Source: Eledone cirrhosa (Eukaryota). From it: DNA of 64,000 bases. Position numbers and translations under genes: made by a program. Positions 2,508 through 52,961 of the stretch are shown piece by piece. The notes beneath the pieces are model-generated. The model was given only the letters and a program-made list of their open reading frames with translations, was not told the origin of the DNA and ran no database searches. Positions within the stretch are counted from its first letter, which is position 1. Every line of letters begins with the position of its first letter. The DNA lies in assembly GCA_964016885.1 (NCBI GenBank), contig OZ024745.1, positions 32,984,001-33,048,000 of the forward strand, in the 5' to 3' direction.

Positions 2508-2669
2508 CTGTCCCCCAAAAATGTATACACACTTCAACAGCATTCTAATAAGTATTGCCTGTACATGCAATCAAAGTGTGTATACCTGTTTGTGACACCC
2601 TATATATATAGGTACATATATATATATATATATATAATATAAATATACCTATACACATAAACACACACA

Positions 2670-3453
2670 ATGAAAAAGGAAGAGAATAATCAACACATAA
2701 ATGCAAATAAAGTGACTCCAATAGCAGTCATTACACATAAATCTGACCTAACCTATCATATACACACCACATTAGACACAAAGAAAAACAAAACATCCTT
2801 GAGAACACTACTCCAAACCACACTCTCATACATACCAATAACTAAACCTATATTAATTACTGATATGGAGGAGATGGACGTCATCAGGCTGCAGCCATCA
2901 TATTACGTCGTTTCTGTATATCTGCAGCGACCAACACTTCGCTATGTTATCAGTATTAACAAATTCATGGACTCAGATCAACCACCAATGAACAAACTCC
3001 AACTATATGCTACCAACGAATAAGATCTGAAAACAAACTACATTACGCCCATATTACACCCATACTATCATTCAATGCCACTAACATTACAACAAATATA
3101 CTCAATGAAATAAATTAATCGCTTAACGTTTAAAACCAGAACCGATTAATGTATTTATCTATTAACCAAATCCAAATCCTTCGGTGAGCGAAATCAACAG
3201 GTCACGTAACGACTAGATAAACCCGTAAAAAATTGATATCATCACTATAACCTTACCTAATCAGTGTTGCAGCCACCAACACAAAATCAGATCAAACGCC
3301 AGTTCATAAATTTCAACCATATATCAACCTCCTCTTTCTCCTAACTTTATTATTTTCTGATGAAGGAATAACGTCAGATACGTTTAAACACACTTTTTCC
3401 TTTTCTCACAATCATGAAACTAATAAATCTTTGTGTAATTATTGTGTTTATGT

Positions 3454-3470
<17 letters not shown>
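2670..3470 (+). mobile_element. Probable degraded Penelope-like element 3' remnant
   Basis: AC-rich plus strand. The translation 'HTTLDTKKNKTSLRTLLQT' loosely resembles a GIY-YIG C-terminus. A degenerate CTGATGAAGG hammerhead-like core lies at ~3357. Confidence 0.35.
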
Positions 3471-3488
<18 letters not shown>

Positions 3489-3500
3489 CGCGCGCGTGTG

Positions 3501-3616
3501 TTATAGAAATTACTTCTACAGGAGTAGAACTGTTTCATTCGTATGAAATCATCGGGAATGTCTTGATGATTCCATACGAATGAAACAGTTCTAGTCCTGT
3601 AGAAGTCATTTCTATA
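3501..3616. mobile_element. Older palindromic copy of the hammerhead-containing repeat
   Basis: Same GAATGAAACAGTTCTAGTCCTGTAGAA motif in inverted arrangement. Cores mutated to TTGATGA and CCGATGA; stem II loop ATAC instead of TAAT. Confidence 0.6.
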
Positions 3617-3619
3617 TAT

Positions 3620-3800
3620 AATTGTTTCTACTTTTGGCACAAGGCCAACAATTATCCCAGTACATTACTGGTACTTTATTTTATCGACCCCGTAAGGATG
3701 AAAGGCAAAGTAAACCTCGGCGGGATTTGAACTCAGACCGTAAAGGGACGTAACTATGCTAGAAAGCATGGCGTCCGACTCTCTACCGATACTGCAATAA
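3620..3800 (-). mobile_element. tRNA-derived SINE (abundant family)
   Basis: Minus strand has an A/B-box-like head (..CTGAGTTCAAATCCCGCCGAGG..) and a body CCTTTCATCCTTACGGGGTCGATAAAATAAAGTACCAGTAATG shared by many copies in the window. Confidence 0.8.
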
Positions 3801-3888
3801 AGATGCCTATACTCTACCAATGTATTGAGTATCTTTTTTAACTGTGGTTACCCCCTGACACAACTCGAGAGTCTCTCTCTCTCTCTCT

Positions 3889-3988
<100 letters not shown>

Positions 3989-3998
3989 TGAGAGACTC

Positions 3999-4066
<68 letters not shown>

Positions 4067-4553
4067 GAGAGAGAGAGAGAGGGGGAGAGGGGGAGAGGGG
4101 GGGGAGTACTCAAGCATGGCCACAATTTAATGACTGGAACTAGTAAAGAAATCAGAGAATAAAAATAATTCTTAAATTTAAGAATTAGATCATTGTAGCT
4201 AACAATATTTACTTATTGAAATACACAACATTTGAAGTAAAACGGTGCCAGACCTACCAACCTCTAAACAGGCAGTGCCACGAAAAAAAAGTGCCCTAAA
4301 ACGGGGAGAAGTGAGGCAAAAAGGGGAGATTTTACATTTTTACTAGAGAAGACGTCTCTCATCCACCCTAAAGAGGGTGAGAGATTTCCTCATCGGACAG
4401 GAGAATTGACAGGTCTGCAGTGTAATTACTGAAACTATAACTTTATAAGCTATGTTCAAGTTAACCTTTCTTAAAGATTTGGTGTAGTATATAAAAAGTA
4501 CAACTACATATAGAACCACTATAAAACCTGCACAGCGGGATATATAAATACAC

Positions 4554-5165
4554 AGACAGCTATCTGCCTATATCTATAGACAGCTATCTACCTATATTTA
4601 TAGACAGCTATCTGCCTATATCTATTGACAGCTATCTGCCTATATCTATAGACAGCTATCTACCTATATCTATAGACAGCTATCTACCTATATTTATAGA
4701 CAGCTATCTGCCTATATCTATTGACAGCTATCTGCCTATATCTATAGACAGCTATCTACCTATATCTATAGACAGCTATCTACCTATATCTATAGACAGG
4801 GCCGGATTTAGATTTGATGAGGCCCTAAGCTATCTGAGATAATGGGGCCCTTTATATGTTATAAAAAATGTTATAAAAACTGCAAAACGTTCAATATTAA
4901 AGCAGAAAACTGTTTAAAAGTATTGCATTATTTTAGTTCTTTTTTATCTTATATTTTGAAAATGTACACCGCTTTTTTGTTCAATTTTTTCGAGGCCCCA
5001 AGAAAGTGGGGGCCCTAAGCTATAGCTTGTTTAGCTTATACGTAAATCTCACTCTGTCTATAGACAGCTATCTACCTATATCTATAGACAGCTATATGCC
5101 TATATCTATAGACAGCTATGTACCTATATCTATAGACAGTTATCTACCTATATCTACAGCTATCT
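4554..5165. repeat. 24-bp minisatellite (TAGACAGCTATCTRCCTATATCTA)n interrupted by a MITE
   Basis: About 10 units before and 4-5 units after the insertion. Confidence 0.9.
4797..5056. mobile_element. hAT-type MITE
   Basis: Termini CAGGGCCGGATTTA / TAAATCTCACTCTG, internal GGCCCTAAGCTA repeats, 8-bp TSD TCTATAGA. Confidence 0.7.
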
Positions 5166-11482: not shown

Positions 11483-11554
11483 GGCTCGTTGGTCTAGGGG
11501 TATGATTCTCGCTTCGGATGCGAGATGTCCTGGGTTCAATTCCCGGACGAGCAC
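11483..11554 (+). pseudogene. Degenerate tRNA-Pro(CGG) copy
   Basis: Matches the copy at 13003 except for four substitutions, including the base 3' of the anticodon (G37A) and an acceptor-stem mismatch (GAGCAC vs GAGCCC). Confidence 0.75.
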
Positions 11555-13002: not shown

Positions 13003-13074
13003 GGCTCGTTGGTCTAGGGGTATGATTCTCGCTTCGGGTGCGAGAGGTCCCGGGTTCAATTCCCGGACGAGCCC
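13003..13074 (+). tRNA. tRNA-Pro (anticodon CGG)
   Basis: GGCTCGTTGGTCTAGGGGTATGATTCTCGCTT-CGG-GTGCGAGAGGTCCCGGGTTCAATTCCCGGACGAGCCC gives a canonical cloverleaf. TTTTT Pol III terminator at 13085-13089. Confidence 0.97.
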
Positions 13075-17448: not shown

Positions 17449-17636
17449 TAATTGTTTCTACTTTAGGCACAAGGCCAGCAATTACCAGTGCATTACTGGT
17501 ACTTTATTTTATCGACCCTTTAAGGATGAAAGGCAAAGTCAACCTCGGCGGGATTTGAACTCAGATCGTAAAGGGACGTAACTATGCTGGAAAGCATGGC
17601 ATCCGACCCTCTACCGATACTGCCAATACACCGCCC
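17449..17636 (-). mobile_element. tRNA-derived SINE copy
   Basis: Family body and head. The flank TTTAATATTTAAAATAAT is duplicated on both sides, like a TSD. Confidence 0.8.
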
Positions 17637-19684
17637 TTTAATATTTAAAATAATGAGGCAAGTTGCATTTGGCCTTGAGATAGCGTTATTATATAGCTTC
17701 AGTTAAATGCACAAATATAGTCATCAGAGATGATTGCATGTGATGTATAGGAAAGTGAATGGGAGGTTGAAATTGTAAGATTTAATTTTGGAGCAAGATA
17801 GAAATTTCACAAAAAAAAATTTCATTGTTTGGGACGAGATGCCAGATTTGAATTTTTTCATGAAAGTGATAAATTTTGATCTCTGCCAAAATTTATAATT
17901 TACTGAGAAATGACAATTAAAAACAAACTAGGTAACTAGAATGTACTTTGCTCTATATTATTCAAGTCGGGACAAATCAGTTTTCAAGGGGGTCCTTCTT
18001 GGTGATCTATACAAACACTCAGTATAATGTGGACTCTTCAGCTGTGACAAGCATAACACTAGTGCTGGAGCCTCAATAAAATGCACTTGTTAGAAAGACA
18101 TTGTATTCAAACCAAAGGCCCATCTGACAAACTAGCAGCTCCACCTACTGGTAAGAAGCACTAAATTATGATTTTGCTGACCTTATTGTAGTAGCTCCTT
18201 TTAGTTTTTCAAACTGTACATAAAGATCTTATGTAATACCATGAGCTCCAACAAATCTATGTCTACATGTACTATTAGTGTGCTGATGTGACATTTGGTT
18301 CAGCATATTCAGCTCTTGATAAGATCGTGGTTCATATAGTCGGAAACACTTACCAAACAAGGGAGGTGATTATATTTATAGGATAGACTTATGGGTGTGA
18401 TATTGAAGACAGTATGGTGCAGTTTGAAGGACACACAGGTCAGGTATCTTAAGCTGGCAGAGTACAGAATGTCACCAATCCTTGTGCTTCTTTTCAACCT
18501 TTACTACATCTTAGATCACCAAGATTTATGTACTTAATACAGCTGTCATCATCCAGAGTTCGTTCCAAACCAAGTTTTTCATTCAACCAGCCTACACAAT
18601 ACTTTCATTGTTTAGCCACCACAAATCTGCAAATAGCTCATTGCAATGCAGTGTTTTTCACATAACACTTAGGTGGGCAATGGTACAAAGCTTCTGAATT
18701 TGAAACCTACTACAGCTATTGTGACCAATAACCTAAGTAACAAATTCTAGTGAACCTTCCAGTTGAGTTGATCTATGCTGCATACAAAGTGTATCTCCTG
18801 TTAATTTACCGGTAATACCATAACATTTTTTTTTTTTGTGCCAAGATTATATTAAGTCCAGAGTTGTTTCTAACCAACTCACAAAAGGTCAAACTAGGCC
18901 ATTTTCCAGCATCATGTCACTCTCTACTTTAAACCTTTGTCCAGCAGGTGGAGAGTTGTCAGAACAGATCCAATAATTTTGGTTTCAAAGCTACTAACAA
19001 CCAAAACTCGTCATGTGGGATGTCACTACTGTAAGCCAGTGTCCAAGGCTGCAAAAATAGAATACCATATTCAGGGTGACACAAAGTCACTAGACCTTTT
19101 CCAAAATATAACCTTTATTCACTGTAGATTAATTGTATCTCAATTCTGAGATACGACAGGGACAGAGTTATATTACTCCAAAGAGGAAACCCATTTTGAC
19201 TGCTTGCATTTACTTTCTTTCAGCTATTACCAAAGATCCATGACCATAGATAGGTTATGGGTTGGCACAAATAGTGAATTACCTCTTCTAATTACTGAAT
19301 GCTTAGGCTGGCACATTACTGTACCAGCCCCTACACTAGCTTCCTGCCCTCCGAAGGGTGCAAACTGTAACCTAGAACAGAACAATTACAGGCAAGGAGC
19401 AGGACTGGACCTAGTGGAAGAGGCTATTCAGGTGTGCTGCTGTAAATGACTGCACAGACAGTTTAAAAAAAACTTATTTACACCCGCGTTTTTGTGAGAT
19501 GGGTAGTCGGTACTTAATTTTGAGTTTCAACAGCTGTATACCCTTCCAACACTTTCCTGGGCATATTAAACCATTTATCAAACTGTTTTTTGGAACAGAA
19601 ACTATATTCCTAGTGCTTAAACTATCATAATTTCATGTTAATTATAACCCTAATGTAGTCAAGAGCAATGTATATTACTGCAGT

Positions 19685-19784
19685 TGAGGACTCAGACATC
19701 CAAGAAAGGAAGGTAACCTTCATAGAACATTTCTCTGGTGGAAACCGCGAACAAATAAGTTCATCATCATCATCATCATCCTCA
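19685..19784 (-). ncRNA. SNORD14: U14 box C/D snoRNA, copy A
   Basis: Box C within (ATG)n, domain A TTCGCGGTTTCCAC, domain B CCTTTCTTGGATGT plus box D CTGA, terminal stem TGAGGA/TCCTCA. Confidence 0.88.
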
Positions 19785-20112
19785 TGACAGTAGTAAAAAC
19801 AAAAGTATTAGGCTTTATTCTTACTGTTAAACCAACCATGGAAATGTCTACCACTCCAAGCAATTATATGAATTCTAGTCTTGGCAGACGTTAATCCCTT
19901 AAAATGAATGCTACCAATTGTCCGATATATTAAAAACATGGTAGTACTCTTCTCCAGAAATATCTATATTTAAAATAAAGTCTCCCAATTTTTTTTTTAA
20001 ATTTGTTAATAAATAGGAAAATCACCTAGGTTTGTTTGAATCCAGCTAAATAACCGTTGATGTGAAAATTTGATAGTGATCAATAAAAAAAATTGTGCAA
20101 GTGACAGCTGTA

Positions 20113-20211
20113 GAGAACTCAGACATCCAAGAAAGGAAGGTGACCTTCATAGAACATATTTCTCTGGTGGAAACCGCGAACAAATAAGTTCAAAACATCA
20201 TCATTGTTCTC
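20113..20211 (-). ncRNA. SNORD14: U14 box C/D snoRNA, copy B
   Basis: GAGAAC-A-ATGATGA..TTCGCGGTTTCCACCAGAGA..CCTTCCTTTCTTGGATGT-CTGA-GTTCTC matches U14 architecture, with 18S-complementary domains A and B. Confidence 0.92.
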
Positions 20212-20636
20212 AACAGCTGACCTTTGGACAATTCTCTTTGGAATGTTATAATGGAAATTAAGGAAATCTATCAACGGTCACAATAGCAGAAAAATTTGTT
20301 AAATGTCGACAATCTCCAATCTCGCCAGAGCAATAACAAATATTAAATGAATCAACCATCATTCTATATAATGCATGTTATGATTTCGACCACTTATTCA
20401 TGGAAAGGGGTGGGGGTCCTTCAACACTCCTTCCAGAAGCAAGTTTGCAATTGATCTGGCTGGATCCCCAAACGAGACCAGAACTCATGGATATTATCCA
20501 ACCACCTTGCTCAGAGTCCATCCGTGTCTCTCGGTTGATTTTGTCTGTAAAATCTGTCCAGAGACAAAGTTGTGATCTATCAAGAAAATTTTAAAAACAG
20601 CCACGTATCATGTCAAACCTATAGTTAGTTCTGTGA

Positions 20637-20736
20637 AAGGGAATTCAGACATCCAAGAAAGGAAGGTGACCTTCATAGAATACATCTCTGGTGGAAACCG
20701 CGAACAATAAGTTCAATTCGTCATCATAATACCCTT
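20637..20736 (-). ncRNA. SNORD14: U14 box C/D snoRNA, copy C
   Basis: Box C 20721-20727, box D 20645-20648, domains A/B intact, AAGGG/CCCTT stem. Confidence 0.92.
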
Positions 20737-21149
20737 ATATACAGACTGATTAACAAGTAGCAGAACATCTAAAGTTCACCCGTAAACGCACGCTTGATAT
20801 CTAATGTTGCTTGTTCTTATTTCGGAAACTTTAAATGTAACGTTCTAAATACCAGTTTATCATGGGGAAACATTTGGCTATGAATTCAAACCTAAGCAGT
20901 GATATTTCATTAGAAATATGACAAAAAGGGCTAATGCGGAAATACTCTAACCCTACGTGTTTCTGACATCTGTCGAATATCTACAATAGAAATTGTTCAC
21001 AGAATCACCCTGCAGAGAGCTGTTTAACATTCATTTGTATTCGGTATTCATCCAGTAAAATAAAGATCAATTAAATCAGCCCCTAGGTTAGAATGGTTAA
21101 GTGTAGGCGATATCTCAGCATTGCAAGATATTCGAGATTCTCAATGTAA

Positions 21150-21330
21150 TAATTGTTTCTTTTGGCACAAGGCCAGCAATTACCAAGTACATTACTGGTA
21201 CTTTATTTTATCGACCCCGTAAGAATGAAAGGCAGTCAACCTCGGCGGGATTTGAACTCAGATCGTATAAGGGGACGTAACTATGCTGGAAAGCATGGCG
21301 TCCGACCCTCTACCGATACTGCCAATCCAA
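21150..21330 (-). mobile_element. tRNA-derived SINE copy inside the snoRNA cluster
   Basis: Family body and head. Confidence 0.8.
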
Positions 21331-21569
21331 GCTTCACAGTGGAGAACAGTCGTAAGGAATGATGTTGGTATGGCTTGTTTCGTGTATATATTTCCATTAT
21401 TTTGTTAGTTTTACTGTGGGTAGCAACGTGGTTGTCTTGCTGACACTAGCGATCTCTTGAATTTCCAGGCCAAAATAAAAAAAAAAATTAATTTTTACAA
21501 TACCATACGACCGGGATTATGAGATTCCTCTATAAGTGGAATAATTTGGAACAATTTATACCGATTAAA

Positions 21570-21668
21570 TGAAGGGAATTCAGACATCCAAGAAAGGAAG
21601 GTAACCTTCATAGAATACATCTCTGGTGGAAACCGCGAACAATAAGTTCATCATCATTATACCCTTCA
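21570..21668 (-). ncRNA. SNORD14: U14 box C/D snoRNA, copy D
   Basis: Box C 21651-21657, box D 21580-21583, TGAAGGG/CCCTTCA stem, domains A/B intact. Confidence 0.92.
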
Positions 21669-21790
21669 ATAGAGCGATAGTGTCATATGTGTTGAGATAA
21701 AAGGGAAAAGGCACGAGTCAAAACATCAGAACATACGCAAAAAAGAAACTAATGGTATTTAATTAACCCAATTAATTATATGCTGCAGTA

Positions 21791-21889
21791 GAGAACTCAG
21801 ACATCCAAGAAAGGAAGGTGACCTTCATAGAACATATTTCTCTGGTAGAAACCGCGAACAAATAAGTTCAATACATCATCATTGTTCTC
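21791..21889 (-). ncRNA. SNORD14: U14 box C/D snoRNA, copy E
   Basis: Box C 21876-21882, box D 21797-21800, GAGAAC/GTTCTC stem. One C>T change in domain A (GTTTCTAC). Confidence 0.9.
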
Positions 21890-22135
21890 AACATGAAAGC
21901 AGCAATAATTCTAAAATCCACATCGAGGAAAGGACAATATTGAGGCCCCCAAGTTGACATCAGCGGGACTTCAACTTGAACTCAAGTCGTAACCAAATAC
22001 CGTAAAGCATTTTATCCGATGCTCTACCGATTCAGTCAATACCCCTATCCCAATTTCAATTTCATTAGTAGAATCTATAATGAAAACCTGTTACACGGAA
22101 CGATGTTAAGACTATCCGGGAATATAGTTCTGTGG

Positions 22136-22236
22136 AAGGGAATTCAGACATCCAAGAAAGGAAGGTAACCTTCATAGAATACATCTCTGGTGGAAACCGC
22201 GAACAAATAAGTTCAGTCCATCATCATTATACCCTT
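22136..22236 (-). ncRNA. SNORD14: U14 box C/D snoRNA, copy F
   Basis: Box C 22221-22227, box D 22144-22147, AAGGG/CCCTT stem, domains A/B intact. Confidence 0.92.
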
Positions 22237-22422
22237 GTATACATAGTTGTAATAAAAGTATCAAAATACAACCGGGATGTGATATGAAACATGTAGCAGA
22301 AAATGAAATTGCAATCATGTACATACAATATATTGAACACATTGCGATGTCTACAAAACAAAACTAATTTTAAAATGGTTATAAACTTTCATACATCAAG
22401 CCATCTACAACTCAGTATTTAC

Positions 22423-22490
22423 ACCAATCAGTTAACAACAATTCAACAACAGTTTCAGAACAGGTCTGTGAAAATTATCATCATATTGGT
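22423..22490 (-). ncRNA. SNORD25: U25 (snR56-equivalent) box C/D snoRNA
   Basis: ACCAA-T-ATGATGA-TAATTTTCACAGACCTGTT-CTGA(D')..CTGA(D)-TTGGT. The guide TCACAGACCTGTT is complementary to the conserved 18S sequence AACAGGTCTGTGA. The D'+5 rule gives the G equivalent to human 18S Gm1490. Confidence 0.88.
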
Positions 22491-23086
22491 AAAATACTTT
22501 AAACATAGCTACGAGCTGATATACAATGTTTACATGTCTTTCAGTTAGATTCAATGTCGACCCAGCAACAAAATTATAGCCTTTTGAAAACGGAGATTCT
22601 TCTTCTTGAGATTCTTTTCGAAACATGCTGTATATCATTGGTTCTTAACCAGGGGGGGGGGGGGGGCATAGAAAGTTATTGCTTGAGCCACCGGAATTAT
22701 CTAGAAATCAAAAAATTTTATGCATAAAAAAGAAGAGTTTCCTAACAATTTTTTCTTGCTTCAAATTATCAACTTTCTAATTATGAAATTACTTCACTTG
22801 ATAATCATTTTAAATCTGGATATAACAATTCATGTTTTAGTAAATAAACTTAGTTTTATAACAGGATATATTTATTTTAGTAAATTTCTCATTGACAAAT
22901 AAAGCCATGCCGAAATTATTTCTACATAAAAATATTATACAAAAAAAGCTTGAGATAGGATCAAATATAGCAGTATCATGAAATAAATAGCCAATGCATA
23001 CCGAATACTTTTTCCTAGCAGCACTTACATTTACACGCAAGACCATGGAACCAGCTTTTCGAAAGACAAACCACCAACTAATAAAA

Positions 23087-23172
23087 GTATTGAGGTCAGG
23101 TACTGTCTAGTAACGCTCACTGATGTTGTCACATCTCATGAAACCCAGTTAATATTCATCATTCCTCAATAC
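23087..23172 (-). ncRNA. Box C/D snoRNA, candidate snR65-like guide for LSU rRNA
   Basis: Perfect 9-bp terminal stem GTATTGAGG/CCTCAATAC, box C ATGATGA (23156-23162), box D CTGA (23096-23099). D-guide CTAGACAGTA against the conserved LSU sequence TACTATCTAG gives 9/10 pairs. Confidence 0.8.
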
Positions 23173-23706
23173 ACAGCCAAAGATTTTTAATCACCACATT
23201 TTTCTAAAGCAATCATGTAACCATTTCCTAAATCGCATATATGCCTAAGTAATCAAATCCATGCCACTACCATAAATGAAACCGTAAGGGCGAGTCGGCC
23301 GCGTGGTCCCGGAGGGCATGATGAAGACATTTCCTCGGAAGACGGCAAGACGAACTGGAACATACATCAACCTCGCACCTAGAAGCAGCCAATTCCTCTC
23401 AGATAGCAGAGATGTGGTACCCGAGAGCGAAGAGGACTGGAAGTAAAGAACCAACAAAGAGCAACGAAAGAACGAAAATTTAAACAAAACTACTATTCTT
23501 CACACAATTCAGCTGAAACACCTAATTCAAGTAACGAATATCATAGTTAATACTATATATCGGGATTTTTTTTAATCGACATTCATCCCTCCTGGTAAAC
23601 TCGACGTCACCAACTGCTGATGCTGTTAACATCTGAAATATAAAATAAACACCCAACTGTAAAAGCAGAGGAGTCATTTCAAACATTTATAATATAGATA
23701 TATAAC

Positions 23707-23835
23707 GACTGTGGCAAGGTCTATACAATATACGACATATATATATCAATTAGTGTATAAACCTTGCCTAATATAATATAGCAATTATTTTACACAGTCA
23801 TTCAACAAATGAGGACTGCTCTAGCAAAATTGCAA
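23707..23835 (-). ncRNA. Box H/ACA snoRNA, candidate guide for the LSU uridine equivalent to human 28S U3830 (legacy numbering) / yeast U2347
   Basis: Hairpin 1 has stems GCAATT/AATTGC and GCAGTC/GACTGT with pocket TTGCTAGA / GTAAAAT. H box ATATTA lies 14 nt below the pocket apex. Hairpin 2 GGCAAGGTTTATACA/TGTATAGACCTTGCC is followed by ACA plus 3 nt. About 129 nt. Confidence 0.8.
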
Positions 23836-24387
23836 TCAACGAGTCTTTAACAAACAAGTCTCTTTACCCACGTGGAGAACTCAAACGTGTATAAAATAAA
23901 ATTCCCCATTTCATAGGCTCCCCCCCTTAAATTGAAGACTCCCTACAATTTAACATTTCATGTTACTAATACTATCTTAAATAACATTTCATGTTACTAA
24001 TACTATGTTAAATAAATTACAATTATTTACTGCGAATGACTACGATGTTCTATAATTAATAACGTCATAGAGCCATTAACAATGTACAGCTATAATTATT
24101 CGCTAAATATAACTACTTTTAGCCAATTTAATAATTAGGAGCCCAGCTCACATGTGTTACTACACTTCATATATTTCTAAGATTGCATCTGTTAAAATAA
24201 TTAAATATCTCTCTCTATATATATATAAAGATAAAATTAATCTATAATAATTAACAACTAACCCAGGATGAATGCTAAATTAAGCCTCTCTTATTTAAAA
24301 TATAAATTTGTGGTGTAAAAGTTAAGCGTTTAAAAGTATAAAGCAGGAGGAGAACTTACAAGATGTTCACAGGTGGACGGTCCTCAG

Positions 24388-24420
24388 CGAAAAGGCTGAA
24401 GTCAGTCCAATACCGGAAGT
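24388..24420 (-). promoter_or_regulatory. TCT (polypyrimidine initiator) promoter with ETS/GABP-type site
   Basis: Minus strand ACTTCCGG (24420-24413) about 20 nt upstream of CCTTTTC, which matches YC+1TYTYY. This arrangement is typical of ribosomal-protein and snoRNA host genes. Confidence 0.6.
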
Positions 24421-26476
24421 TGAAAATTTAGGCGCAAACTATGAAATATTTAAAATATAAAAGAGAAAATAATAATTTCTTCAAAGAAATATATAAACCT
24501 ATATTGTAATTAAATATGTTTTTTAAAATATTACAAGTATTTATAGTGCATAATAAAATATAATGATTTAATTTCAGAAAATCAAACTTAAATTATTTTG
24601 TTTCATACTAGTCAGGACTTCTAAAACTACTTCCGGAATTCTGTTCTAGCAAGCTGCTGCTGCTGCTTTTTGTCGTCAATATCATTGTCCCTAGGTTATC
24701 CATTAGGTTCTATGACAGATTGCTCTCCCCTCTCCTTCTCATCTCAAAATCTTGCGATTTTTAAACTTTCATTTCATTTTAACACCAACGTTAGAAATTA
24801 TAAATTAAAAGGGAAATAATTTAACAATGCTCTTAAAACAAGATAAAATAACTTTCACAAAATTTGAATCCATTTAATGTAACAATTATAAAAAAAATAT
24901 TCATTCTCTTGTATTTAGTGCAGAAAAATTTACTTTGACTAAGTATGATAAAAATTTGCGTTAATTTCCTCAGATATTAGAGACATCGACATTTAAGACG
25001 GAACTACTCTTTCTTAAGAATCATTTATTTCCTCAACGGGACATAAATATTCATAATATATGTTTACACTCAATAGTCAATAATGTTTTTATCATATAGA
25101 TCTATATATTGCTTTTATTTTTCATGAATAGAAAGAGAAAGTGATCATTCACTTCGTACTACGTAGGTACTTCCGGTTTACCCCTCCACGTCGTTTTCCT
25201 TAATAATTCATTTCGTTTTTTGCAGCCAACGTTGTAAGTGGAATTCTCTTTTAATTTTGTGAAGAGACGCAAAATAAATACGTCAAGGAAGGACTTACAT
25301 TTTGATTTGTTATATTTCCCTATATAATTACTGAGTAATTTTTCTTTATTTAATTTCAGAACTACAAGTCAACATTCACGTGAAGGTGTCAATCGTCATA
25401 ACAGTTAGCTTTAATCTCATTGCGGAGAAATGTATCTTCATCTTACATTAAACCTCGTGGCTTAGTGGTTAGGATGTCCGCTCACAGTCTTAGGTTCCAT
25501 TCAGTGAGGCACGTTGTGTCCTGCAGGACATTTTATTTTACTTTGCTCCACTCCACTTATCTAACAAAAATAGGTCTTACCTGTAACTCCCTTAGAACAT
25601 AGTTTGGATATACTTGTCAGTGGAATGCTCGGGTACCTTTTACGTTAATTTCACGAGCCAACTTCTTATGCAGATATAACCTCATCCTGTAGACTAGCAT
25701 AACTTGAATACAGTCATCTACAGGGCAACTCAAAACTAAGGCCTCTCTGCACATGATCACTTTATATATGGTAGCCCTTTCGTAGTTAAAATTGCACGTA
25801 AAAATAGAAGTCACAACTTCGATACACATTTAAGGTACTGTTCACGAATGTGAGACCCTGTAATTACTACACACATTTAATATCTTAAAAGCCCCTCCAA
25901 ATTATAGACAAACCTTCACTTTACCAACGTCTCTGACACACCGATATCCTGTTTCATCTATATCTCTTCTACCACTACACAGAGCCAATGCGATCTGCTA
26001 GATATAGCAGCCAAATTTCTCTCCAATCACATTCAATTAATTAATGATCTATTTGGGGGAATTATTTATTTCATAGTTATGTAAAATTGTTCGAGTATTT
26101 TAATTTAAGTAGAAACCCTTTAAAATTAGTCATTTTGTTTCACAGCCATGATAGTATCAAAAGCGTTAAGATCACAGTTGGAGTGTCTGGTCTTTCCTCT
26201 CCATAACCAACTCTCAGTGCCAAAAGTAGAAACAATTATTTTTATTATTATCGCACCTATCCGAGATAGGTTTCTCCATCCGAGTTCAAAACACCAATCT
26301 CAGAGACGGGGTTAATACAAATTTACCGTTTTCTTTACATTTTATAGAAGTTTAAGCTGAACATCATCACACAGAACATTTATTTGTGTGTGGTTTACGC
26401 CCGTTTTTTACTCTATATATACATAGGACTAGATGTATAAAAATACAGTTGTTGCTACTAAAATATTTCTACTCGT

Positions 26477-26613
26477 TGCAATTCTGTTCGAGCAGTCTTC
26501 ATTTGTTGAATGACTGTGTATATTGATTGCTATATTATATTAGGCAAGGTTTTATACACTTATTGATGTATAATGTTATGTACTTTGTATTTTGTATAGA
26601 CCTTGCCACAGTC
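26477..26613 (+). ncRNA. Paralogous H/ACA snoRNA copy (diverged or pseudogene)
   Basis: Reverse-complement homologue of 23707-23835. Both hairpins, H box ATATTA and ACA-GTC are retained; pocket sequences are changed. Confidence 0.65.
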
Positions 26614-26683
26614 GTAGTCGTCGTTATATGTCTGTACTTTGTGTAAATATTTAAACAATGTATCATATATTATCTAGTTGTTA

Positions 26684-27115
26684 TACCAGGTTGAGTCAAA
26701 ATATTTTTCGGATTTCCGCTGATAGTTTTTGGCAACTTGTATCTCCATATATCATTAATACAACTTGTCCAATCGTTGCTAAATTATTTACTCCTTATTT
26801 TACAGGAGCCGTTTTACTCTACCTGTGGTAAAAAGAGCTGAGTGCAAGGGCAGTGGCAAAATATATTAATGATGTGGATGGTTCAAGAACTGTCAAAGAG
26901 CGCATGGCACAAAACTGGTTCACACGTTTCAGGGAAGTTGACACCAGTCTCGAAGACAGACCAAGATCAGGGGGACCATCTGTTGTGAAAGATTAGGCCT
27001 TGCTTGAAACGGCCAACCACGAACGCTCGTACATTGTCGGTAGAACTTGATCCTTCACAAAGCATCATCAATCAACATCTCAATAAACTCAGCCTTGAGA
27101 ACAGACGCTGATACT
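26684..27115 (+). mobile_element. Mariner transposon 5' remnant
   Basis: TA-CCAGGTTGAGTC TIR-like start. Translation 'RTVKERMAQNWFTRFREVDTSLEDRPRSGGP' is a mariner helix-turn-helix region, with an in-frame stop. Confidence 0.75.
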
Positions 27116-27442
27116 CCTAGAGGCAGTTCCATAGTCTAAATTGTTTCTACTACTGCGCCGTTGAAGTACTGTATTTATTGTTTGTGGTTGTCACTAGAGA
27201 TATATTTTATGGGGGTTTCTTTCTACTCATGTTGGTGTGTTTATATATGTATGCTGATAACAAATAAGTACCCAGTCCATCCTGTATGGTGGTGGTGTTG
27301 GTGACACAAATAGCATCCAATCCACTCTGTAAGCTGATCATATTTGTCTCATGACAAAAAGCACCTAGTCTACCCTGTTAGATGGTGACACGATAAATAA
27401 ATACCCAATCCACCCTGTAAATGCGCTTGGCATTAGGAAGGG

Positions 27443-28181
27443 GGCGATATCCAATTTTAGTGGACTAAATGCTGCTTACGTGCTGTAGTTGCTGTTTACT
27501 TCAATGTATGAGGCTATTCCAACAAATTTACATTCCCCCTTTTTTTTAGCCGTTAAAAGAAATATAGATTTTTTTTTGCGATTTATTTGCCACTGGGGCA
27601 TAGATTTCTTTATTTGCCCCTTTTTTGTTTGTTTGTTTTTTTGGCGATTTATTAGCCTTTTGGGGTCACACACACCCCCGTAGAAAGTGTGCGACCTTTC
27701 TGCCAGGGAGTACATAGAGAGGGGGGGTGCTCCCTTCTCTTACCTGTACAAGCCGATATAGAGAGATGGCCCACTTACACGGACAATTATTGCTACTTTC
27801 ACCCGAAAAAGGCACTCAGTCCCAGCCAATTCCATGAAAGATGGGTAAAAGTAGCAATAATGGCCCGTGTAAGTGGGCCATCTCTCTATATCGGCTTGTA
27901 CAGGTAAGAGAAGAAGGGAGCACCCCCCTCTCTCTGTGCTCCCTGGCAGAAAGGTCGCACACTTTCTACGGGGGCGTGTGTGACCCCAAAAGGCTAATAA
28001 ATCGCAAAAAAAGGGGCAAATAAAGAAATCTATGCCCCAGTGGCAAATAAATCGCAAAAAAATAAAAATAAATAAATCTATATTTCTTTTAACGGCTAAA
28101 AAAAGGGGGAATGTAAATTTGTTGGAATAGCCTCATACATTGAAGTAAGCGGCATTTAGACAGCTAAAATTGGATATCGCC
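27443..28181. mobile_element. 739-bp foldback (fully palindromic) non-autonomous DNA transposon
   Basis: Termini GGCGATATCCAATTTTAG / CTAAAATTGGATATCGCC; arms pair to the centre (~27800-27845); 8-bp TSD AGGAAGGG (27435-27442, 28182-28189) within a retroposon tail. Confidence 0.9.
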
Positions 28182-28457
28182 AGGAAGGGCATCCAGCCAT
28201 GAAAACCAAGCGAGAAACAGTCATGTATGAGCAAGACAGTCACCTGATCTGATTTGTCTTACAATGGGGCAACTCATCTAACCCATGCTGGCGTAGAAAA
28301 TAGATGTTAAACAGTGATGATGATTCTCACCAACAAAGTATTAGCTTGCTTCTAATGAGATATTATTATAGTCCTTTTGTTAGTTTTGCTGCAGCTATCT
28401 ATCAAGTACTATACCCCAGGAATTGTTACTGGGGTTTAGTATTTCTAGTACTCTGTT

Positions 28458-28557
28458 GAAGAGTATTATAATATATTGAACTTATTGTTTGCAGTTTCCA
28501 ATAGAGAAATGTTCTATGAAGGTCACCTTCCTTTATTGATACATTTAACTACTCTTC
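28458..28557 (+). pseudogene. U14 snoRNA pseudogene (paralogue of copy F)
   Basis: TGAACTTATTGTTTGCAGTTTCCAATAGAGAAATGTTCTATGAAGGTCACCTTCCTTT. Boxes C and D are lost. The downstream flank resembles the copy-F flank (..TATT.CCGGATAG.CTT..). Confidence 0.8.
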
Positions 28558-28615
28558 CATAGTTGTATTACCGGATAGGCTTGATGTGAACATGTTTGGT
28601 GTAAGATTCTTTTTT

Positions 28616-31044
28616 AGGTTCTCAACGGGGGGGGCATATGCACCCCCAGGGGGCGTTTGGAGATTTGGAGTGCACTGGAAGGCTCTTTACTTTGGTAAGT
28701 TTTATAAGCCATATTTGTATGTCTTTGAGACAGCCAGTGTGAATGCATTTGAATGAGCATGCAGACAGCATAACTATGGTCTGACCGCAGGTGTGCAGGC
28801 CTGTTTAGACATTAACCGGCAATTGAGATCCTAACAATGGAAAATCCCACAGTCAACTGGGTCAAGGACACTTCAATCGCAGCCAGTTAGAATCTTGTTT
28901 TTCCTTCACCGATAACAATGTATTTCATGTCTGAAATTATTGACTCTACCGTAACGAGTTAACACTATGTAGATCTATTTTATTTCCTATTGTATAAATA
29001 ATATTACAAATAAAAAAAAGAAGAAAAAACACAGAAGTGGGTAGCACACACATCTAGGACCACATACAACACATAAGCAGGTAATACACACATCTAGGAC
29101 TATATGCAACACATAAGGAGGTAGCACACACATCTAGGACCACATACAACACACAGGCAAGTAATACATACATTTAGGACCACATACAACACAGGCAGGT
29201 AATACAAACATCTAGGACCACATACAACACATAATCAGGTAATACATACATCTAGGACCACATGCAATACATAAGCAGGTAATACATCTAGGACTACCTA
29301 CAACACACAGGCAGGTAATACATACATCTAGGACCAAATACAACACATTGTATCGTGCTACGGACGACGCAATGGTCAGCCAACATAAGGGTTTCGTCAC
29401 TCTTCTGAAGAGAGAAAATCTATCTGTATTTGTTGTTCATTGTGTCATTCATCGACAACACTTGGCTGTGAAGAAACTCAGCAAGCCACTGAGCAAGTCC
29501 TTGCAGGTGGCCCTTGATGTCATCAATTTGATCAAACGGCATTCCCTATGAACGAATTTTCCGGCAACTGTGCCAAGATAATGACAAAGAATTCGTCAAA
29601 TTGTTCCTTCATAATGAAGTGAGGTGGCTTTCAAAGGGAAACTGCCTTACTCACTTCTTTGAACTGTTTGACTCTATTATTGAGTTTCTGCGAGGACGCA
29701 ACACAGAACTGTACAAGAAAACCCTCGATGTGAGGCAAAACTGCGCCTACCTCACCGACATCGTCAACAAATGCAATAGCATCATTTTGGCTTTGCAGGG
29801 GAAGAAGATCATCTTGCTTAAAGCAAGGAATGCTGTGAAAACATTTCTGGCCAAATTGAATGTCATCGAAAGGAATCTTTGTTGACGAGAATTCTATAAT
29901 TTTCCTAGTGTCGCCAATGTTCAAAACATTGTAAGCGATGACCAACTCCAAATTTATACCGCTCACCTCCGTGCGCTACAAGACAACAAGGAGAGAACGG
30001 TTTGTCGACCTTTTGCCGATGGACATCCCAATGTGGGTAGCAGATCCCTTCACACCTAACGTCGATGATTTGGACGTTATATTTCAGGAAGAATTCATTG
30101 AACTTCAAGCAGATGACATGATCAAAATTAGATTTCCCAAAATAGGTGAACCCCTTTTTGGATGCAAGAGGAAATTCAGCGTCGATTTCCACACCTACAT
30201 GCAGAGGTTAAGAGATTTGCTCTGCCTTTTCCAAGCTCATACTTAGTCAAGAGGAGGTTTAGTGCGGTTTCCAGACTGCACAGTAAGGCTCGCAACCGCT
30301 ACAATGTAATTACATGTGGAGATCTCCGGCTACATCTTACAAAAAATCCAGCCTCACGTCAAAGAGTTAGCTAGACTCCATAAAGTTCAAGGGTCCCATT
30401 GAAATGAGGTCAAAGTTAAAGTAAGTTGATTTATCCGAAAACTTAGATATGCTATTGTTACAAAGCAAACTAACAATTTTTTATATTTGAAGTTGCAGTC
30501 TGACTGGACTGGAAACCATCTACTACAATTCACTTACTCATTTGTTGTATATATTTTACCATTTACTAATAAATATACCCTCCCGCGTGGTCATGAAAAC
30601 CCTCTTCCGTGGTCTCTAAGCTCACAAAGCAGAGGGGACATCAAGTTAGATATCAACATTTATTCTGTCCATTTCATTAAAGGGAAAATTGGAAAGCTTT
30701 GAAATGATATAATTGCCACTTTCTTCTAGATAAGAGCACTCTTTGGATAGACAGAGTTGCTCTTGTATAAATGTTCAAAATAGTTGGTATCGTTGGTGGG
30801 AATATAACAAATTCAACTGGTCCTTATTCATAAAAAAGAACATTTATGTTCCTTTTTTTGAAATTTATATATTTCCCTTCAAGGAATATATTTATACTCT
30901 CAGCTGCCTGCAATGGTATCTTTGGAATATTGTTAATCAATTTTTTAGTAATCTACAGATATCAAAATCAGTAGTATATTGAAAAATGGGGGAGGGGGCG
31001 TTTCGTGATTTCGAGGTTTGGCCTAAATGGGTTGAGAACCTGTG
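28616..31044 (+). mobile_element. Degenerate hAT (Buster/Charlie-type) DNA transposon
   Basis: TIR-like AGGTTCTCAAC / GTTGAGAACCT. Transposase fragments 'HCVIHRQHL', 'HNEVRWLSKGNCL' and 'LPFPSSYLVKRRFSAV' at 29350-30400, with frameshifts and stops. Confidence 0.85.
29039..29348. repeat. ~38-40-bp minisatellite, ~8 copies
   Basis: Unit GGTAATACACACATCTAGGACCACATACAACACATAAGCA, inside the hAT element. Confidence 0.9.
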
Positions 31045-31243
31045 ATGTAGATCATAGCTTCCACATATATACAAAATGATGGTTGATATGTTTCATATTT
31101 ATCAGTAATATTCTCTATGCTGCTATTACTGCTCTGCTGGTATCGACATTTTGCCATTTATTCTCAATACTATTTCCACACCATTGATAGATTTCACTTT
31201 TCATTATAACATTTCAAAGAGAAAGGAATAAGATTTATTGATA

Positions 31244-31336
31244 TCAGCTATTGAACCCATTTGTTCGTGGTTTCCACCAAAGGAATGTTCTATGATCACC
31301 TTCATATCTTTGATGTTTAAATTCACTCCAGCTGTC
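31244..31336 (+). pseudogene. U14 snoRNA pseudogene (paralogue of copy B)
   Basis: TTGAACCCATTTGTTCGTGGTTTCCACCAAAGGAATGTTCTATGATCACCTTC. Box C is deleted and box D mutated. Upstream flank ~31075-31225 is homologous to the reverse complement of ~20230-20365. Confidence 0.8.
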
Positions 31337-33235
31337 AATTGTCAATATTTTTGCCCCTCTTTTTGTTCACCTTATTAAATTAGGTGTTTTTAGTGATGGC
31401 TGGATAGGTCTTTGATAGAACTTTCAGCTGTCTTTTTGATTATGACACAGCATGAAAAATGAGTGATGATATTGTGGTCATCATTGACTGGATGACTTAC
31501 TTTTGAATACACACAATGTGTGTCTGATTGTGAGGCCTAGTATTAATTTACTATTGTTTAATGTTAAGAAATATCAAAATCATTTTCCATCCCTCCACAG
31601 TCCAAGTCTTTATTCATTTTACTATCCTAGATGTTTGAAGAATAACATCTCACTTGTGTTCCATGGCAGGGCTGTACAGAATGTACTGGGTGTGTTTTAT
31701 CACAGTACCAGCACTAGAGAGGGTTATCGCATCCCTGACTTACCTTGTCTCTATTTGCCAACCATGTATTTTAAATTGCCATGTTCCCTTAAAAACTAAA
31801 AACTTTACCTTGTGGAATTGGTGATGGTAAGTAATAGTGATAGATGTCAATGATGAGTTTCATGGAGAATGGTGACAAACGGTTAATAGAAAAATTGAAT
31901 GTGGGCTGACCAAATTAAATGCCATCCCATGATATGTAGGCAGTAAATAGAGGAGAGCAGTAGATGGAGATTTGACAAGAATGTACTGGCCAAAAGATCG
32001 AATGTAGATATATATCCAAACCTCCATCCCCCACCACCATTTTAATTTTTGCCATGCTTCCTTCCACCAGTAAGGGAGTTTCTCCAGCTTCGCATGTCAC
32101 CACTCATCATGGTTCTTTAACATCTTTGTGATGTTGAGTTTTTCAAATCAATCCTAAGTCTCCTTTTTGCACAGGTTTCAAACACTTGGCACTTTCTACA
32201 TACATCACATGCCAGTATTAACAGTCTTCTCTTCTTCCACACAACTAATTCCTCTTGTATCCAGTAGTTTAACCCAGTATGGAGATTCCAGTTAAATCTT
32301 TAACAACTAAACTAACCTTCCTGTTTGTCAACATGAAATATTAGGCTGTTAATTAGTTCTATAAATTTAGTATTAATTTAACCGTTTAGCATTTTCATTA
32401 GTCTCTATTTACTATTGTATTTTCACAGTAAATACTTTATCTCACATAATATCAAATTTTTGAGATTTTGAGAACAATGCCTTAACATCGTATGAGTGGC
32501 CGGTTACAGCCAGTTTGAACAGAAAGAGGTGAGGGAATTCTGGCTGGATACAGCAGGTTTGAATGCTAAAGGGTTAAGGCAGATTTTATTTGGCGTACTT
32601 GTTTGTTTTTCTATGGTGACTTGATTGGCATCTTCTAGTCTTCGAGAAATGGCCCGAGACCTAATTTATAAGTTATCCTCAGTGATATTGCTATCAAAGT
32701 TGTTCCTATGTACATAGGTTGAAGCGTACTAAGAGTATGCACCACTTTGCCCCTATGCTCTTACACTCCCACCCTACACTGTAAATTGGTCATTTTGGTG
32801 CCACAACAAAAAGCACCCAGTCCACACTGTAAATGCGGTTGGCATAGGAAGGGCATCCAGCCATAGAAACCAAGCCAGAAACAGTTCTGTGAGCAAAATA
32901 TATCACCTGGCCTAACTTGTCTCAAGTGGGACAATTCGTCTAACCCGTGATAGCATGGAAAATGGACATTAAACGATGAACGAGCAGCTTGTTGGCACCA
33001 CAGTGATTCACACCAGTAATTTCTCATAGTGAATGTTACTACCCCTTGGAGATGCTGGGAATCTCAGTGATACTAAAAAGTAGCAGAGTGTGGTAAAGGA
33101 GGAAAAAGTCGAAGATGTAGTAGTTACTCGTAAAATCTGCCACCTTTAGTTATTCAATAAATCTTTTATTTTTTTTAAAATTCAATTTATCAACTTGTTG
33201 GGTAGTCAAACGATATATATTCTCTTTAGAGAAAT

Positions 33236-38575: not shown

Positions 38576-38999
38576 TCAACAGCAACCTCCACCTTCTGGT
38601 TCACCCTCTAAATGTAAAGTCTCTTTGGGTCGAGCAAAACCATTTTTCACACCGTCCCATCCTTCTTCAACTGTAATTTTACCCTCTTCTAACATTTGAT
38701 ATATGTCTCTGGCAACAACGAGAAAAGCTTCTTCCACATTAGTTCCAGTTTTGGCAGAAGTCTCTAAAAATCTTAGTCCATGATATTCAGCAAACTGACG
38801 TCCTTCTCGAGTTGTCACTTTACGTTCATTATCTTTGTCTGATTTGTGACCAACAATCACATAAACAGCCTTATGTGGTTCTATGTGCAACTGCGACTCT
38901 TTCAACCAATCCTCCAAGTGTTCAAAACTACTGCGTTTTGTTATGTCGTAAACTATTAAAGCTCCAACAGAGTTTCGGTAGTAAGATCTGGTTATGGAT
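38576..38999 (-). CDS. RAB39: Rab39 small GTPase, terminal coding exon (exon 1 not found in window)
   Basis: After a polypyrimidine tract and CAG acceptor (39000-39001): 'SITRSYYRNSVGALIVYDIT..VGHKSD..FLETSAK..VEEAF..EEGWDGVKNG..GGGCC*'. The GHK G4 variant and GWDGVK motif are characteristic of Rab39; C-terminal CC prenylation site. Confidence 0.93.
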
Positions 39000-39062
39000 C
39001 TGGAAAAAATCAAAGAGAAAAGAATAAATATGAAAGGGAAGTCAAAGGAGTTTATTAATAAG

Positions 39063-39356
39063 GTATGTATATGTAATACTAGCAAGACAATTGTTTGAAA
39101 GGCAAGTCAAATGGAATTATTAATCAAGTGTGTATATGTAATACTAGCAAGACAATTGTTTGAAAGGCAAGTCAAATGGAATTATTAATCAAGTGTGTAT
39201 ATGTAATACTAGCAAGACAATTGTTTGAAAGGCAAGTCAAATGGAATTATTAATCAAGTGTGTATATGTAATACTAGCAAGACAATTGTTTGAAAGGCAA
39301 GTCAAATGGAATTATTAATCAAGTGTGTATATGTAATACTAGCAAGACAATTGTTT
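39063..39356. repeat. 65-bp tandem repeat, ~4.5 near-identical copies
   Basis: AATACTAGCAAGACAATTGTTTG recurs at 39075, 39140, 39205, 39270 and 39335. Confidence 0.95.
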
Positions 39357-47958: not shown

Positions 47959-48119
47959 TAATATATATATATATTATATATATATATATATATTATATTT
48001 CATTCCTTTTATTTTGATCATGCTTTATTTTTATTTTTAATTCCATTCGCACCATTTCCTTTCGCTATATGTCTCTCCACCACTCCCCTACACACCCTTT
48101 GAACTCTGTTCCCACACAC

Positions 48120-48210
48120 TTCTCACCTGAGGAAGGGCTTATGCCCGAAACGTCGTTCCCCACCACCACCCCACTCTCCAGAGCGTGAAATTAATAAACA
48201 TTCGTTGTAC
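48120..48210 (+). ncRNA. Hammerhead-like core in a Penelope-type terminal repeat
   Basis: CTGAGGA-A-GGGC-TTAT-GCCC-GAAA-CGTCGT, then AATAAA at ~48193. A stem I partner is not obvious. Confidence 0.45.
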
Positions 48211-48254
48211 TGCCTCTCTGTTTTGTTCCTGTACAAATTTTTCCATTATATTAA

Positions 48255-48289
<35 letters not shown>

Positions 48290-48981
48290 TTATAATATAT
48301 ATGTATATATCATATATATATACATTATATATATATCATATATATATCATATATATATAATATATATATAATATATATATAATTTATATATATATATATA
48401 ATATATATATAATATATATATAATATATATATAATTTATATATATATATATAATATATATATCATATATATATCATATATATATCATATATATATAATAT
48501 ATATATTATATATATATCATATATATGTAATATGTATATCATATATAATATATATATTATATATATCATATATATGTAATATATATATCATATATATGTA
48601 ATATATATATCATAAATATGTAATATATATATCATATATATATAATATATATATCATATATATATAATATATATATAATATATATATCATATATATAATA
48701 TATATATTATATATATCATATATATTATATATATATTATATATATCATATATATTATATATATCATATATATATATATTATATATATATATATTATATAT
48801 ATTATATATATATCATATATATATCATATATATATAATATATATATAATATATATATATTATATATATATTATATATATATTATATATATATATCATATA
48901 TATATCCTATATATATGTAATATATATATCATATATATATATGTATATAATATATATATAATATATATATAATATATATAT

Positions 48982-49035
<54 letters not shown>

Positions 49036-50486
49036 TATATATATAATATATATATATATCATATATATATAATATATATATATGTAATATATATATCATA
49101 TATATATATCATATATATATAATATATATATATTATATATATATCATATATATTGTAATATATATATCATATATATATATCATATATAAATAATATATAC
49201 ATATTATATATATATCATATATATATATATATATATATCATATATATATCATATATATATAATATATATATATATATCATATATATATATCATATATATA
49301 TATTATATATATATCATATATCATATATATATACTATATATATATTATATATATATATCATATATCATATATATATAATATATATATATTATATATATAT
49401 CATATATATATATATATATATCATATATGTATAATATATATATATCATATATATATAATATATATATATATAATATATATATATTATATATATATCATAT
49501 ATATATCATATATATATATATATATTATATATATATCATATATATATATATATCATATATATATATATATGATATATATATATATATATATCATATATAT
49601 ATAATATATATATATTATATATATATATATATATCATATATATATAATATATATATATTATATATATATATATATCATATATATATAATATATATATATT
49701 ATATATATATATATATCATATATATATAATATATATATATATTATATATATATATATATATATCATATATATATAATATATATATATTATATATATATCA
49801 TATATATCATATATATATATATTATATATATATCATATATATAATATATATTTATATTATATATATATCATATATATAATATATATTTATATTATATATA
49901 TATCATATATATCATATATATATATATTATATATATATCATATATATAATATATATTTATATTATATATATATCATATATATCATATATATATATATTAT
50001 ATATATATCATATATATAATATATATTTATATTATATATATATCATATATATAATATATATTTATATTATATATATATCATATATATATCATATATATAT
50101 CATATATATATATTATATATATCATATATATATCATATATATATATTATATATATCATATATATATCATATATATATCATATATGATATATATATATTAT
50201 ATATATATATATTATATATATGATATATATATATAATATATATATATTATATATATATAATATATATATATTATATATATCATATATATATCATATATAT
50301 ATCATATATGATATATATATATTATATATATATATTATATATATGATATATATATATAATATATATAATATATATATATTATATATATATAATATATATA
50401 TATAATATATATAATATATATATATTAATATATATATAATATAATATATATATATTAATATATATATAATATAATATATATATATT

Positions 50487-50519
<33 letters not shown>

Positions 50520-50765
50520 ATATATATATATTATATATATATCATATATATAATATATCATATATATAATATATATATATCATATATATAATATATATAT
50601 ATATATAATATATATATATATATAATATATATATATATATAATATATATATATCATATATATAATATATATAATATATATGTATCATATATATAATATAT
50701 ATATATAATATATATATATATAATATATATATATCATATATATAATATATATATATCATATATAT

Positions 50766-50798
<33 letters not shown>

Positions 50799-50822
50799 AT
50801 ATATATATAATATATAATAAAT

Positions 50823-50854
<32 letters not shown>

Positions 50855-51131
50855 ATATATATATAATATATATATAATATATATATATATAATATATAAT
50901 ATATATACAATATATATATAATATATATATATATAATATATAATATATATACAATATATATAATATATATATATATATAATATATATAATATTAATATAA
51001 TATATATATATAATATATATAATATATATATAATATATATATATATTATATGTATTATATATATATATATAATATATATATATATTATATATATATATTA
51101 TATATATTATATATATATATTATATATTATA

Positions 51132-52734: not shown

Positions 52735-52793
<59 letters not shown>

Positions 52794-52929: not shown

Positions 52930-52961
<32 letters not shown>

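Follow-up and report, generated by a model that had tools for sequence, protein, structure and literature searches.

We analysed a 64,000-nucleotide stretch of contig OZ024745.1 from Eledone cirrhosa (assembly GCA_964016885.1, 3.0 Gb; positions 32,984,001 to 33,048,000), hereafter the window, which carries a cluster of small nucleolar RNA (snoRNA) elements. The original prediction had described nine snoRNA-shaped elements on one strand, and nine were indeed found, all on the minus strand in a span of 4.15 kb (19688-23836). Six are copies of U14, one is a U25/snR56-type guide, and the other two are a further box C/D guide and a box H/ACA RNA. The H/ACA RNA (23707-23833) has its H box at 23779, its ACA at 23712-23710 and a 5' pocket formed by 23829-23820 and 23793-23785. 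It is followed by the C/D RNA (23087-23172), with the C box at 23162-23156, the D box at 23099-23096 and the D guide at 23110-23101, and by the U25/snR56-type C/D RNA (22421-22492), with a D' guide at 22471-22459. The U14 array consists of copies a (22140-22232), b (21793-21887), c (21576-21662), d (20641-20732), e (20115-20209) and f (19688-19781), with a SINE-like high-copy interspersed repeat (21147-21329) between copies c and d. The locus appears to be a multi-snoRNA gene of a known kind, in which the adjoining C/D and H/ACA guides predicted to act on one uridine of the 28S ribosomal RNA (rRNA) are the new feature.

A strict scan for C/D RNAs on both strands of the whole window returned nine loci, eight of which are elements of the cluster; the ninth, at 26300-26370 on the minus strand, lies outside it and is probably a chance match. 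Examination with Rfam covariance models bore out the original identifications at an E-value threshold but not at the gathering score. Over 17500-25000, SNORD14 (RF00016) matched six times, scoring 45.2-49.9 bits where the cut-off is 64, with E-values from 2e-8 to 4e-7; the U25 element was best matched by snR56 (clan CL00049) at 22410-22488 with 41 bits (cut-off 54, E 0.004). At gathering thresholds, the whole window yielded two tRNAs only, and that none of the nine elements reaches its gathering score has to be counted against our interpretation. The Rfam cut-off for U14 is strict for invertebrates, because only one of seven other invertebrate copies (51-65 bits) passes it. Standard Rfam cut-offs thus miss U14 entirely in this octopod genome, where the cluster is the main source of U14. 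The U14 and U25 identities are supported by the Rfam matches together with guide pairing to the genome's own 18S rRNA, and the cluster almost certainly consists of real, functional snoRNA genes.

The H/ACA element folds as two hairpins with a z-score of -5.59, and none of 200 shuffles folds as well. No other H/ACA-shaped fold in 17700-24400 scores as high, and the scan for such folds found no further convincing H/ACA RNA in that interval. The 5' pocket lies 14 nucleotides from the H box, within the 13-16 nucleotide spacing rule, and the 3' hairpin is without a pocket; microRNA matches to this 3' hairpin were rejected as far under the cut-off. We searched for targets in the genome's own 18S, 5.8S and 28S rRNAs, U2 and U6. 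Among 2,236 uridines, the top target of the pocket is the uridine at index 5033 of 28S (3+10 bp, score 12.5; next 10.0), a score that none of 300 letter shuffles reached. The C/D RNA has a 9-bp terminal stem and is a single copy in the genome search. Its D guide ranks the same uridine first with 10 Watson-Crick pairs (next 8), and the D+5 position lands on it. The weight of this assignment rests on the agreement of two guides, neighbours in the cluster and of different classes, on one nucleotide, because a match due to chance would fall on that base about once in 2,000. Two other assignments of the C/D RNA were discarded: snoU2-30 (26.7 bits in Rfam), because the genome's own U2 and U6 are outside the top four targets of the D guide, and pairing of its 5' part over 10 bp with another stretch of 28S, because it violates the D'+5 layout.

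The 28S uridine at index 5033 corresponds to yeast U2347 (U2345 in Taoka numbering; human 3830/3851). In a register check, eight of nine neighbouring yeast modified bases agree at shift 0, as against at most four of nine at 12 other shifts. At the position matching yeast pseudouridine 2314, the octopod 28S has a C. The base 3' of the target uridine is G in all 43 matching ribosomal DNA (rDNA) copies, found with a pattern that permitted A or G, whereas it is A in the Rfam consensus and in yeast; the octopod C/D guide has a C opposite the octopod G. This C:G pair at target position +1 belongs to the 10 bp and is not an independent test. Around the target uridine, the H/ACA guide covers rRNA positions -3 to +11 and the C/D guide -3 to +6. 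Since these footprints overlap, the two guides could not bind the rRNA simultaneously. We infer that they would act in turn or compete at this uridine and that the outcome would be a mixture of pseudouridine, 2'-O-methyluridine (Um) and 2'-O-methylpseudouridine (Psi-m) as in yeast. If the two guides share a host, the amounts of the two competing snoRNPs would be tied to each other.

The yeast guides snR65 and snR9 likewise are a C/D and an H/ACA RNA directed at one uridine, at the homologous position. The yeast genes are separate units, whereas the octopod guides adjoin within one predicted host. No match of the octopod guides to the sequence families of the yeast guides was found, which makes the likeness an analogy and not a demonstrated homology. 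In yeast, snR9 and snR65 are described as competing at 25S U2347, giving unmodified uridine, pseudouridine, Um and Psi-m, and the loss of snR9 as having no effect on growth (PMC5062969, PMC5699541). Methylation of about 66% was reported at the yeast site by a study to which Psi-m was invisible (PMC5199042). The human counterpart, 28S U3830, is recorded with pseudouridine only, at 92% (PMC6182160), guided by SNORA62, which is hosted in RPSA (PMC6466398). SNORA62 (E2) is thus likewise an H/ACA guide for the homologous site, but it also targets U3832, whereas the octopod H/ACA RNA has a single pocket and no RF00091 match. In a search of mostly open-access literature, no paper was retrieved that deals with the locus, with the hosts of cephalopod snoRNAs or with a guide for methylation of the site in any animal.

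Several points weigh against the interpretation that both guides modify this uridine. The C/D duplex is short, at 10 bp: among 5,000 shuffles, 64 gave 10 pairs somewhere in the target set, as did 8 of 287 CTGA sites from the genome, a chance of 1.3-2.8% when taken alone. In the H/ACA pocket, one of the two arms forms only 3 bp. The target set did not include U1, U4, U5 and U12, and the 28S sequence used in the scans has an insertion and approximate ends. The SNORA62 model (RF00091) gave no match in the genome at E up to 1 and is not among the 15 Rfam hits of the H/ACA element, and snR65 is not among the 30 Rfam hits at E up to 10 over 17500-25000. We call the two RNAs E2-like and snR65-like by target and not as family members because of these missing matches. 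In a table of six species, yeast alone has ribose methylation at the site (PMC11014333). All the evidence comes from one genome.

The closest alternative is that the locus is an ordinary non-coding host, in which the C/D RNA (23087-23172) either is an orphan or binds the rRNA but does not methylate it, and that the uridine carries pseudouridine only. This is what human 28S shows, and the species without the methyl mark in the six-species table are fly, human, Arabidopsis, Xenopus and Dictyostelium; the rate of 10-bp matches among genomic CTGA sites also fits this explanation. However, two independent scans chose one nucleotide among 2,236 uridines, the D+5 rule falls exactly on it, and the guide suits the G variant that all 43 rDNA copies carry. 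We regard this alternative as possible, though distinctly less probable than a host of nine snoRNAs with H/ACA and C/D guides for one 28S uridine, transcribed from a TCT-type start without coding for protein, which as a whole is probably the best explanation. We are more cautious about the double mark: we lean towards both modifications being made at the U2347-equivalent, as base pairing predicts. With slight preference, we also favour the view that octopods make the mixture of Psi-m, Um and pseudouridine by adjoining guides in one host, with a C/D guide fitted to an rRNA base that has changed in the lineage.

The target assignment of the pair is new relative to the original prediction and is itself predicted from base pairing in one genome. 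It predicts that octopod 28S carries a ribose methyl group at a conserved uridine that is unmethylated in fly and has pseudouridine only in human. If this is so, the yeast double mark has either persisted or arisen anew in an animal, and the placing of competing guides in one host would offer a natural model of how partial rRNA modification is set.

The remaining guides pair with 18S. Boxes C and D and a terminal stem of 5-7 bp are present in each of the six U14 copies, as are both rRNA-binding domains: domain A forms 11 Watson-Crick pairs with 85-95 of the genome's own 18S, and domain B forms 14 pairs (one G-U) with 609-622, ending directly before box D. The D+5 rule applied to copy e points to 18S C613, the context of which is that of human Cm462 and yeast Cm414, an equivalence judged from sequence context. 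Domain A of the six copies would pair with 18S for processing, and domain B would direct methylation of the C that corresponds to human C462. In all 15 pairs of copies, the U14 cores are 86-98% identical and the 60-nucleotide flanks only 43-58%. Alike cores with unrelated flanks indicate selection or gene conversion acting on the RNA bodies. Terminal stems of three different sequences are retained across the six copies. The octopod copies share boxes C and D, domains A and B and the terminal stem with SNORD14 (RF00016), and also its multicopy state; six copies are not unusual, as Xenopus is listed with six. They differ by a short central region, the one G-U in domain B and scores of 45-50 bits versus 64. 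The D' guide of the U25-type RNA forms 13 Watson-Crick pairs with the genome's own 18S and places D'+5 on G2444, the site listed as human Gm1490 and yeast Gm1428, so that this RNA would methylate the octopod counterpart of human 18S G1490. The one other exact match to the U25 pattern in the genome, on contig C3, was rejected because it has no C box.

The original prediction stated that Drosophila Uhg2 hosts U14 and U25 together, which is correct according to the rows of Table S6 in PMC11014333. These rows give the long non-coding RNA (lncRNA) Uhg2 (FBgn0063449) the order Me18S-A1576 (reassigned to 28S-Gm2666), Me18S-G1620, which is the guide for the SNORD25 site, and U14:30Ea/b (PMC11014333). 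Uhg2 is thus likewise an lncRNA whose SNORD25-site guide lies between tandem U14 copies and a further C/D guide, and its promoter is listed as dual-initiation. It has two U14 copies instead of the six in octopod, and no H/ACA RNA among the four rows listed. The octopod locus might accordingly be an orthologue of Uhg2, with U25 and U14 kept together in one non-coding gene from the ancestral protostome onwards, a proposal compatible with our preferred explanation. U25 lies directly beside the U14 array in both species, an adjacency that would occur by chance in a few percent of cases given about 100 guide families (our own estimate, before allowing for post-hoc choice).

The other components do not follow this pattern. 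The further guide of Uhg2 aims at 28S Gm2666, the yeast G2288 equivalent, and not at the U2347 site of the octopod C/D guide. The fly U14s are listed as orphan or as guides for 28S-Gm1005, with a separate RNA in RpL15 guiding C419, whereas the octopod U14s keep both domains. In all three other animal loci that we found, U14 lies in or behind a protein-coding gene, with no U25 guide on the contigs; these loci come from one metagenome scan, on contigs of 1.1-5.6 kb from animals of uncertain phylum. In one of them, L022, five U14 copies (2603-4630, minus strand) lie in one intron between consecutive exons of an RPL7A-like gene; the preceding intron has SNORD36, and a later intron carries two snR60/ceN111-like RNAs. 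The closest named hits for the L022 animal were a bivalve (86%) and a brittle star (84%), each over 43 amino acids. The others have U14 in an RPL5-like intron (L024, 806-904, plus strand) and 1.3 kb behind an intronless AP1G1-like frame (L023, 4082-4176, plus strand), both names being read from translations. The genomic position of snoRNAs is moreover described as labile over deep time (PMC3511168), which also counts against an ancient linkage. The suggestion of an old protostome arrangement rests on the adjacency in fly and octopod, two species whose other guides differ, and we consider descent from a shared ancestral host possible but less likely than not. Octopod is now the second protostome with U25 beside U14, and the linkage question can be tested across molluscs and annelids.

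The putative promoter and first exon of the predicted host were found as originally claimed, at 24420-24354. An ETS-type site (CCGGAAGT on the plus strand, 24413-24420), of putative function, lies 19-26 nucleotides upstream of the predicted start; this 8-mer occurs three times in the window, always within 24413-25176. The TCT/5'TOP-type initiator CCTTTTC (24389-24395, minus strand) conforms to the TCT initiator consensus YCTYTYY and puts the predicted +1 C at 24394. The predicted exon 1 (24360-24394, minus strand) has 35 nucleotides, no ATG and a GTAAGT donor at 24359. A cassette of ETS site, YCTYTYY, short exon and GTRAGT occurs once in 248,000 strand-bases, at 24420-24354; the pattern was composed after viewing the site and serves as a rarity check only. 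TCT starts are described as typical of snoRNA host genes (PMC6954239), and the exons of fly Uhg as untranslated (PMC3396368).

The later candidate exons stood with small corrections: the proposed acceptors at 24188, 23942 and 23632 are present, but exon 2 ends at 24152, and the exon proposed from about 23437 starts at 23436, one base lower. The transcript would have its first ATG in candidate exon 2 (24152-24188, minus strand, 37 nucleotides), with a stop three codons later. An acceptor is usually found about 70 nucleotides downstream of an intronic snoRNA. A candidate acceptor and exon start at 23611-23632 (minus strand) lies 74 nucleotides past the H/ACA RNA, its exon end being uncertain, and a candidate 24-nucleotide exon (22327-22350, minus strand) lies between U25 and the U14 array, with its acceptor 70 nucleotides past U25. 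The expectation of one snoRNA per intron thus fits the H/ACA RNA and U25 but is doubtful for the U14 array. The spacers between U14a and b (244 nucleotides) and between U14b and c (122 nucleotides) contain no acceptor-then-donor pair past the thresholds, from which several U14 copies likely share an intron, a situation paralleled by the five-U14 intron of L022. The same host may release several U14 copies from one intron; yeast polycistronic snoRNAs are described as needing RNase III cleavage (PMC10557570). All splice sites were called by a rough consensus scoring, which tells against the exon structure given here. Three sequencing runs of unrecorded type gave no splice joint at the locus among the joints listed. 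One 151-nucleotide record in run X4 (depth 2.5) fits 23502-23632, ending exactly at the predicted acceptor with 20 further letters, which we take as a hint only, as the run type is unrecorded and the run may be low-coverage DNA.

We found no convincing protein in stop-free frames, by Pfam or by enumerating splice paths, in line with the original statement that the exons give no coherent open reading frame (ORF). The longest stop-free minus-strand frame in 17800-24394 has 89 codons, none of six frames tested with Pfam reached the cut-off, and the median longest ORF over 21,384 candidate splice paths is 64 amino acids. In the other direction, 1,579 of the 21,384 paths have an ORF of at least 100 amino acids (maximum 158). 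The host could thus encode a small protein, or the snoRNAs could lie in introns of a longer protein-coding gene with exons beyond the stretch. ORFs of 100-158 amino acids on some paths and a GC-richer 84-codon open frame (23499-23248) that overlaps the strong acceptor at 23436 would agree with this explanation. However, the absence of Pfam matches at the cut-off for the six frames tested, the stop three codons after the first ATG, and the position of Rab39B, whose exon was the single host-like one to be noticed among proteins of the window and ends in a stop 14 kb upstream, make a coding host unlikely.

A single non-coding TCT host for the cluster is, by comparison, likely. We infer that one non-coding transcript would start at the TCT initiator at 24394, and that transcription by RNA polymerase II, splicing, debranching and exonuclease trimming would free the snoRNAs, as in known snoRNA biology. 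The spliced exons would be disposable on the same grounds, and some U14 copies would likely share one intron. The human class of 5'TOP non-coding hosts, SNHG1/UHG and GAS5, has a TCT start, short exons and several guides per gene, and SNHG1 hosts U25, all of which is also predicted for the octopod host. SNHG1 holds U22 and U25-U31 but not U14, which in human is found in HSPA8 and RPS13. Members of this class have one snoRNA per intron, which is doubtful for the octopod U14 array.

A genome-wide search with the U14 model returned eight matches, a lower bound, as 107 of 36,159 candidates were scored. Six are in the cluster and two are lone copies with intact boxes, at C3:305036424-305036518 and C4:98683081-98683172. 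The copy on contig C3 carries 222 nucleotides of the cluster locus at 99.5%; that on C4 reaches no further than the boxes and, like a retrocopy, has a C/A run and a repeat behind it. Both look derived from the cluster array. Upstream of the promoter, 26476-31352 on the plus strand is a decayed inverted partial copy of the locus with the element order of the intact cluster. It contains an inverted H/ACA copy (26476-26615, plus strand), 86% identical, with altered pocket bases and likely a pseudogene, which has lost pocket pairing, so that the 28S site is no longer its target. It also contains decayed inverted U14 copies at 28442-28582 (plus strand; boxes C and D lost) and 31180-31352 (plus strand; boxes lost), and a third, faint U14 remnant at about 27162-27223. 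Although these decayed copies 2-7 kb from the cluster and the intact boxes of the lone copies would agree with an array of dead or mostly dead duplicates, with the working U14 encoded on C3 and C4, that is very improbable, as the boxes, the two 18S domains and the terminal stems are retained in all six array copies amid unrelated flanks, no other intact copy of U25 or of the C/D RNA was found in the genome, and the lone copies appear to stem from the array.

The last exon of Rab39B (38576-39106, minus strand) lies 14 kb upstream of the cluster on the same strand. It is 99% identical to a sequence cluster named after Argonauta hians, with the next among 117 hits at 72%; this likeness supports the original assignment to a mollusc and specifies an octopod. 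Two tRNA-Pro(CGG) genes are located at 11483-11554 and 13003-13074 on the plus strand, the first with stem mismatches. The rDNA unit on contig C12 (L014-L015) has an 18S of about 2.87 kb in each of the 11 copies listed, and the 28S copy examined contains an additional segment immediately ahead of the conserved UAGCC motif, a place where R2-type elements insert. At the far end of the window, 48000-56000 and 59000-64000 include several kilobases of near-pure AT microsatellite-like DNA with a GC content below 10%, around LINE-type reverse transcriptase frames.

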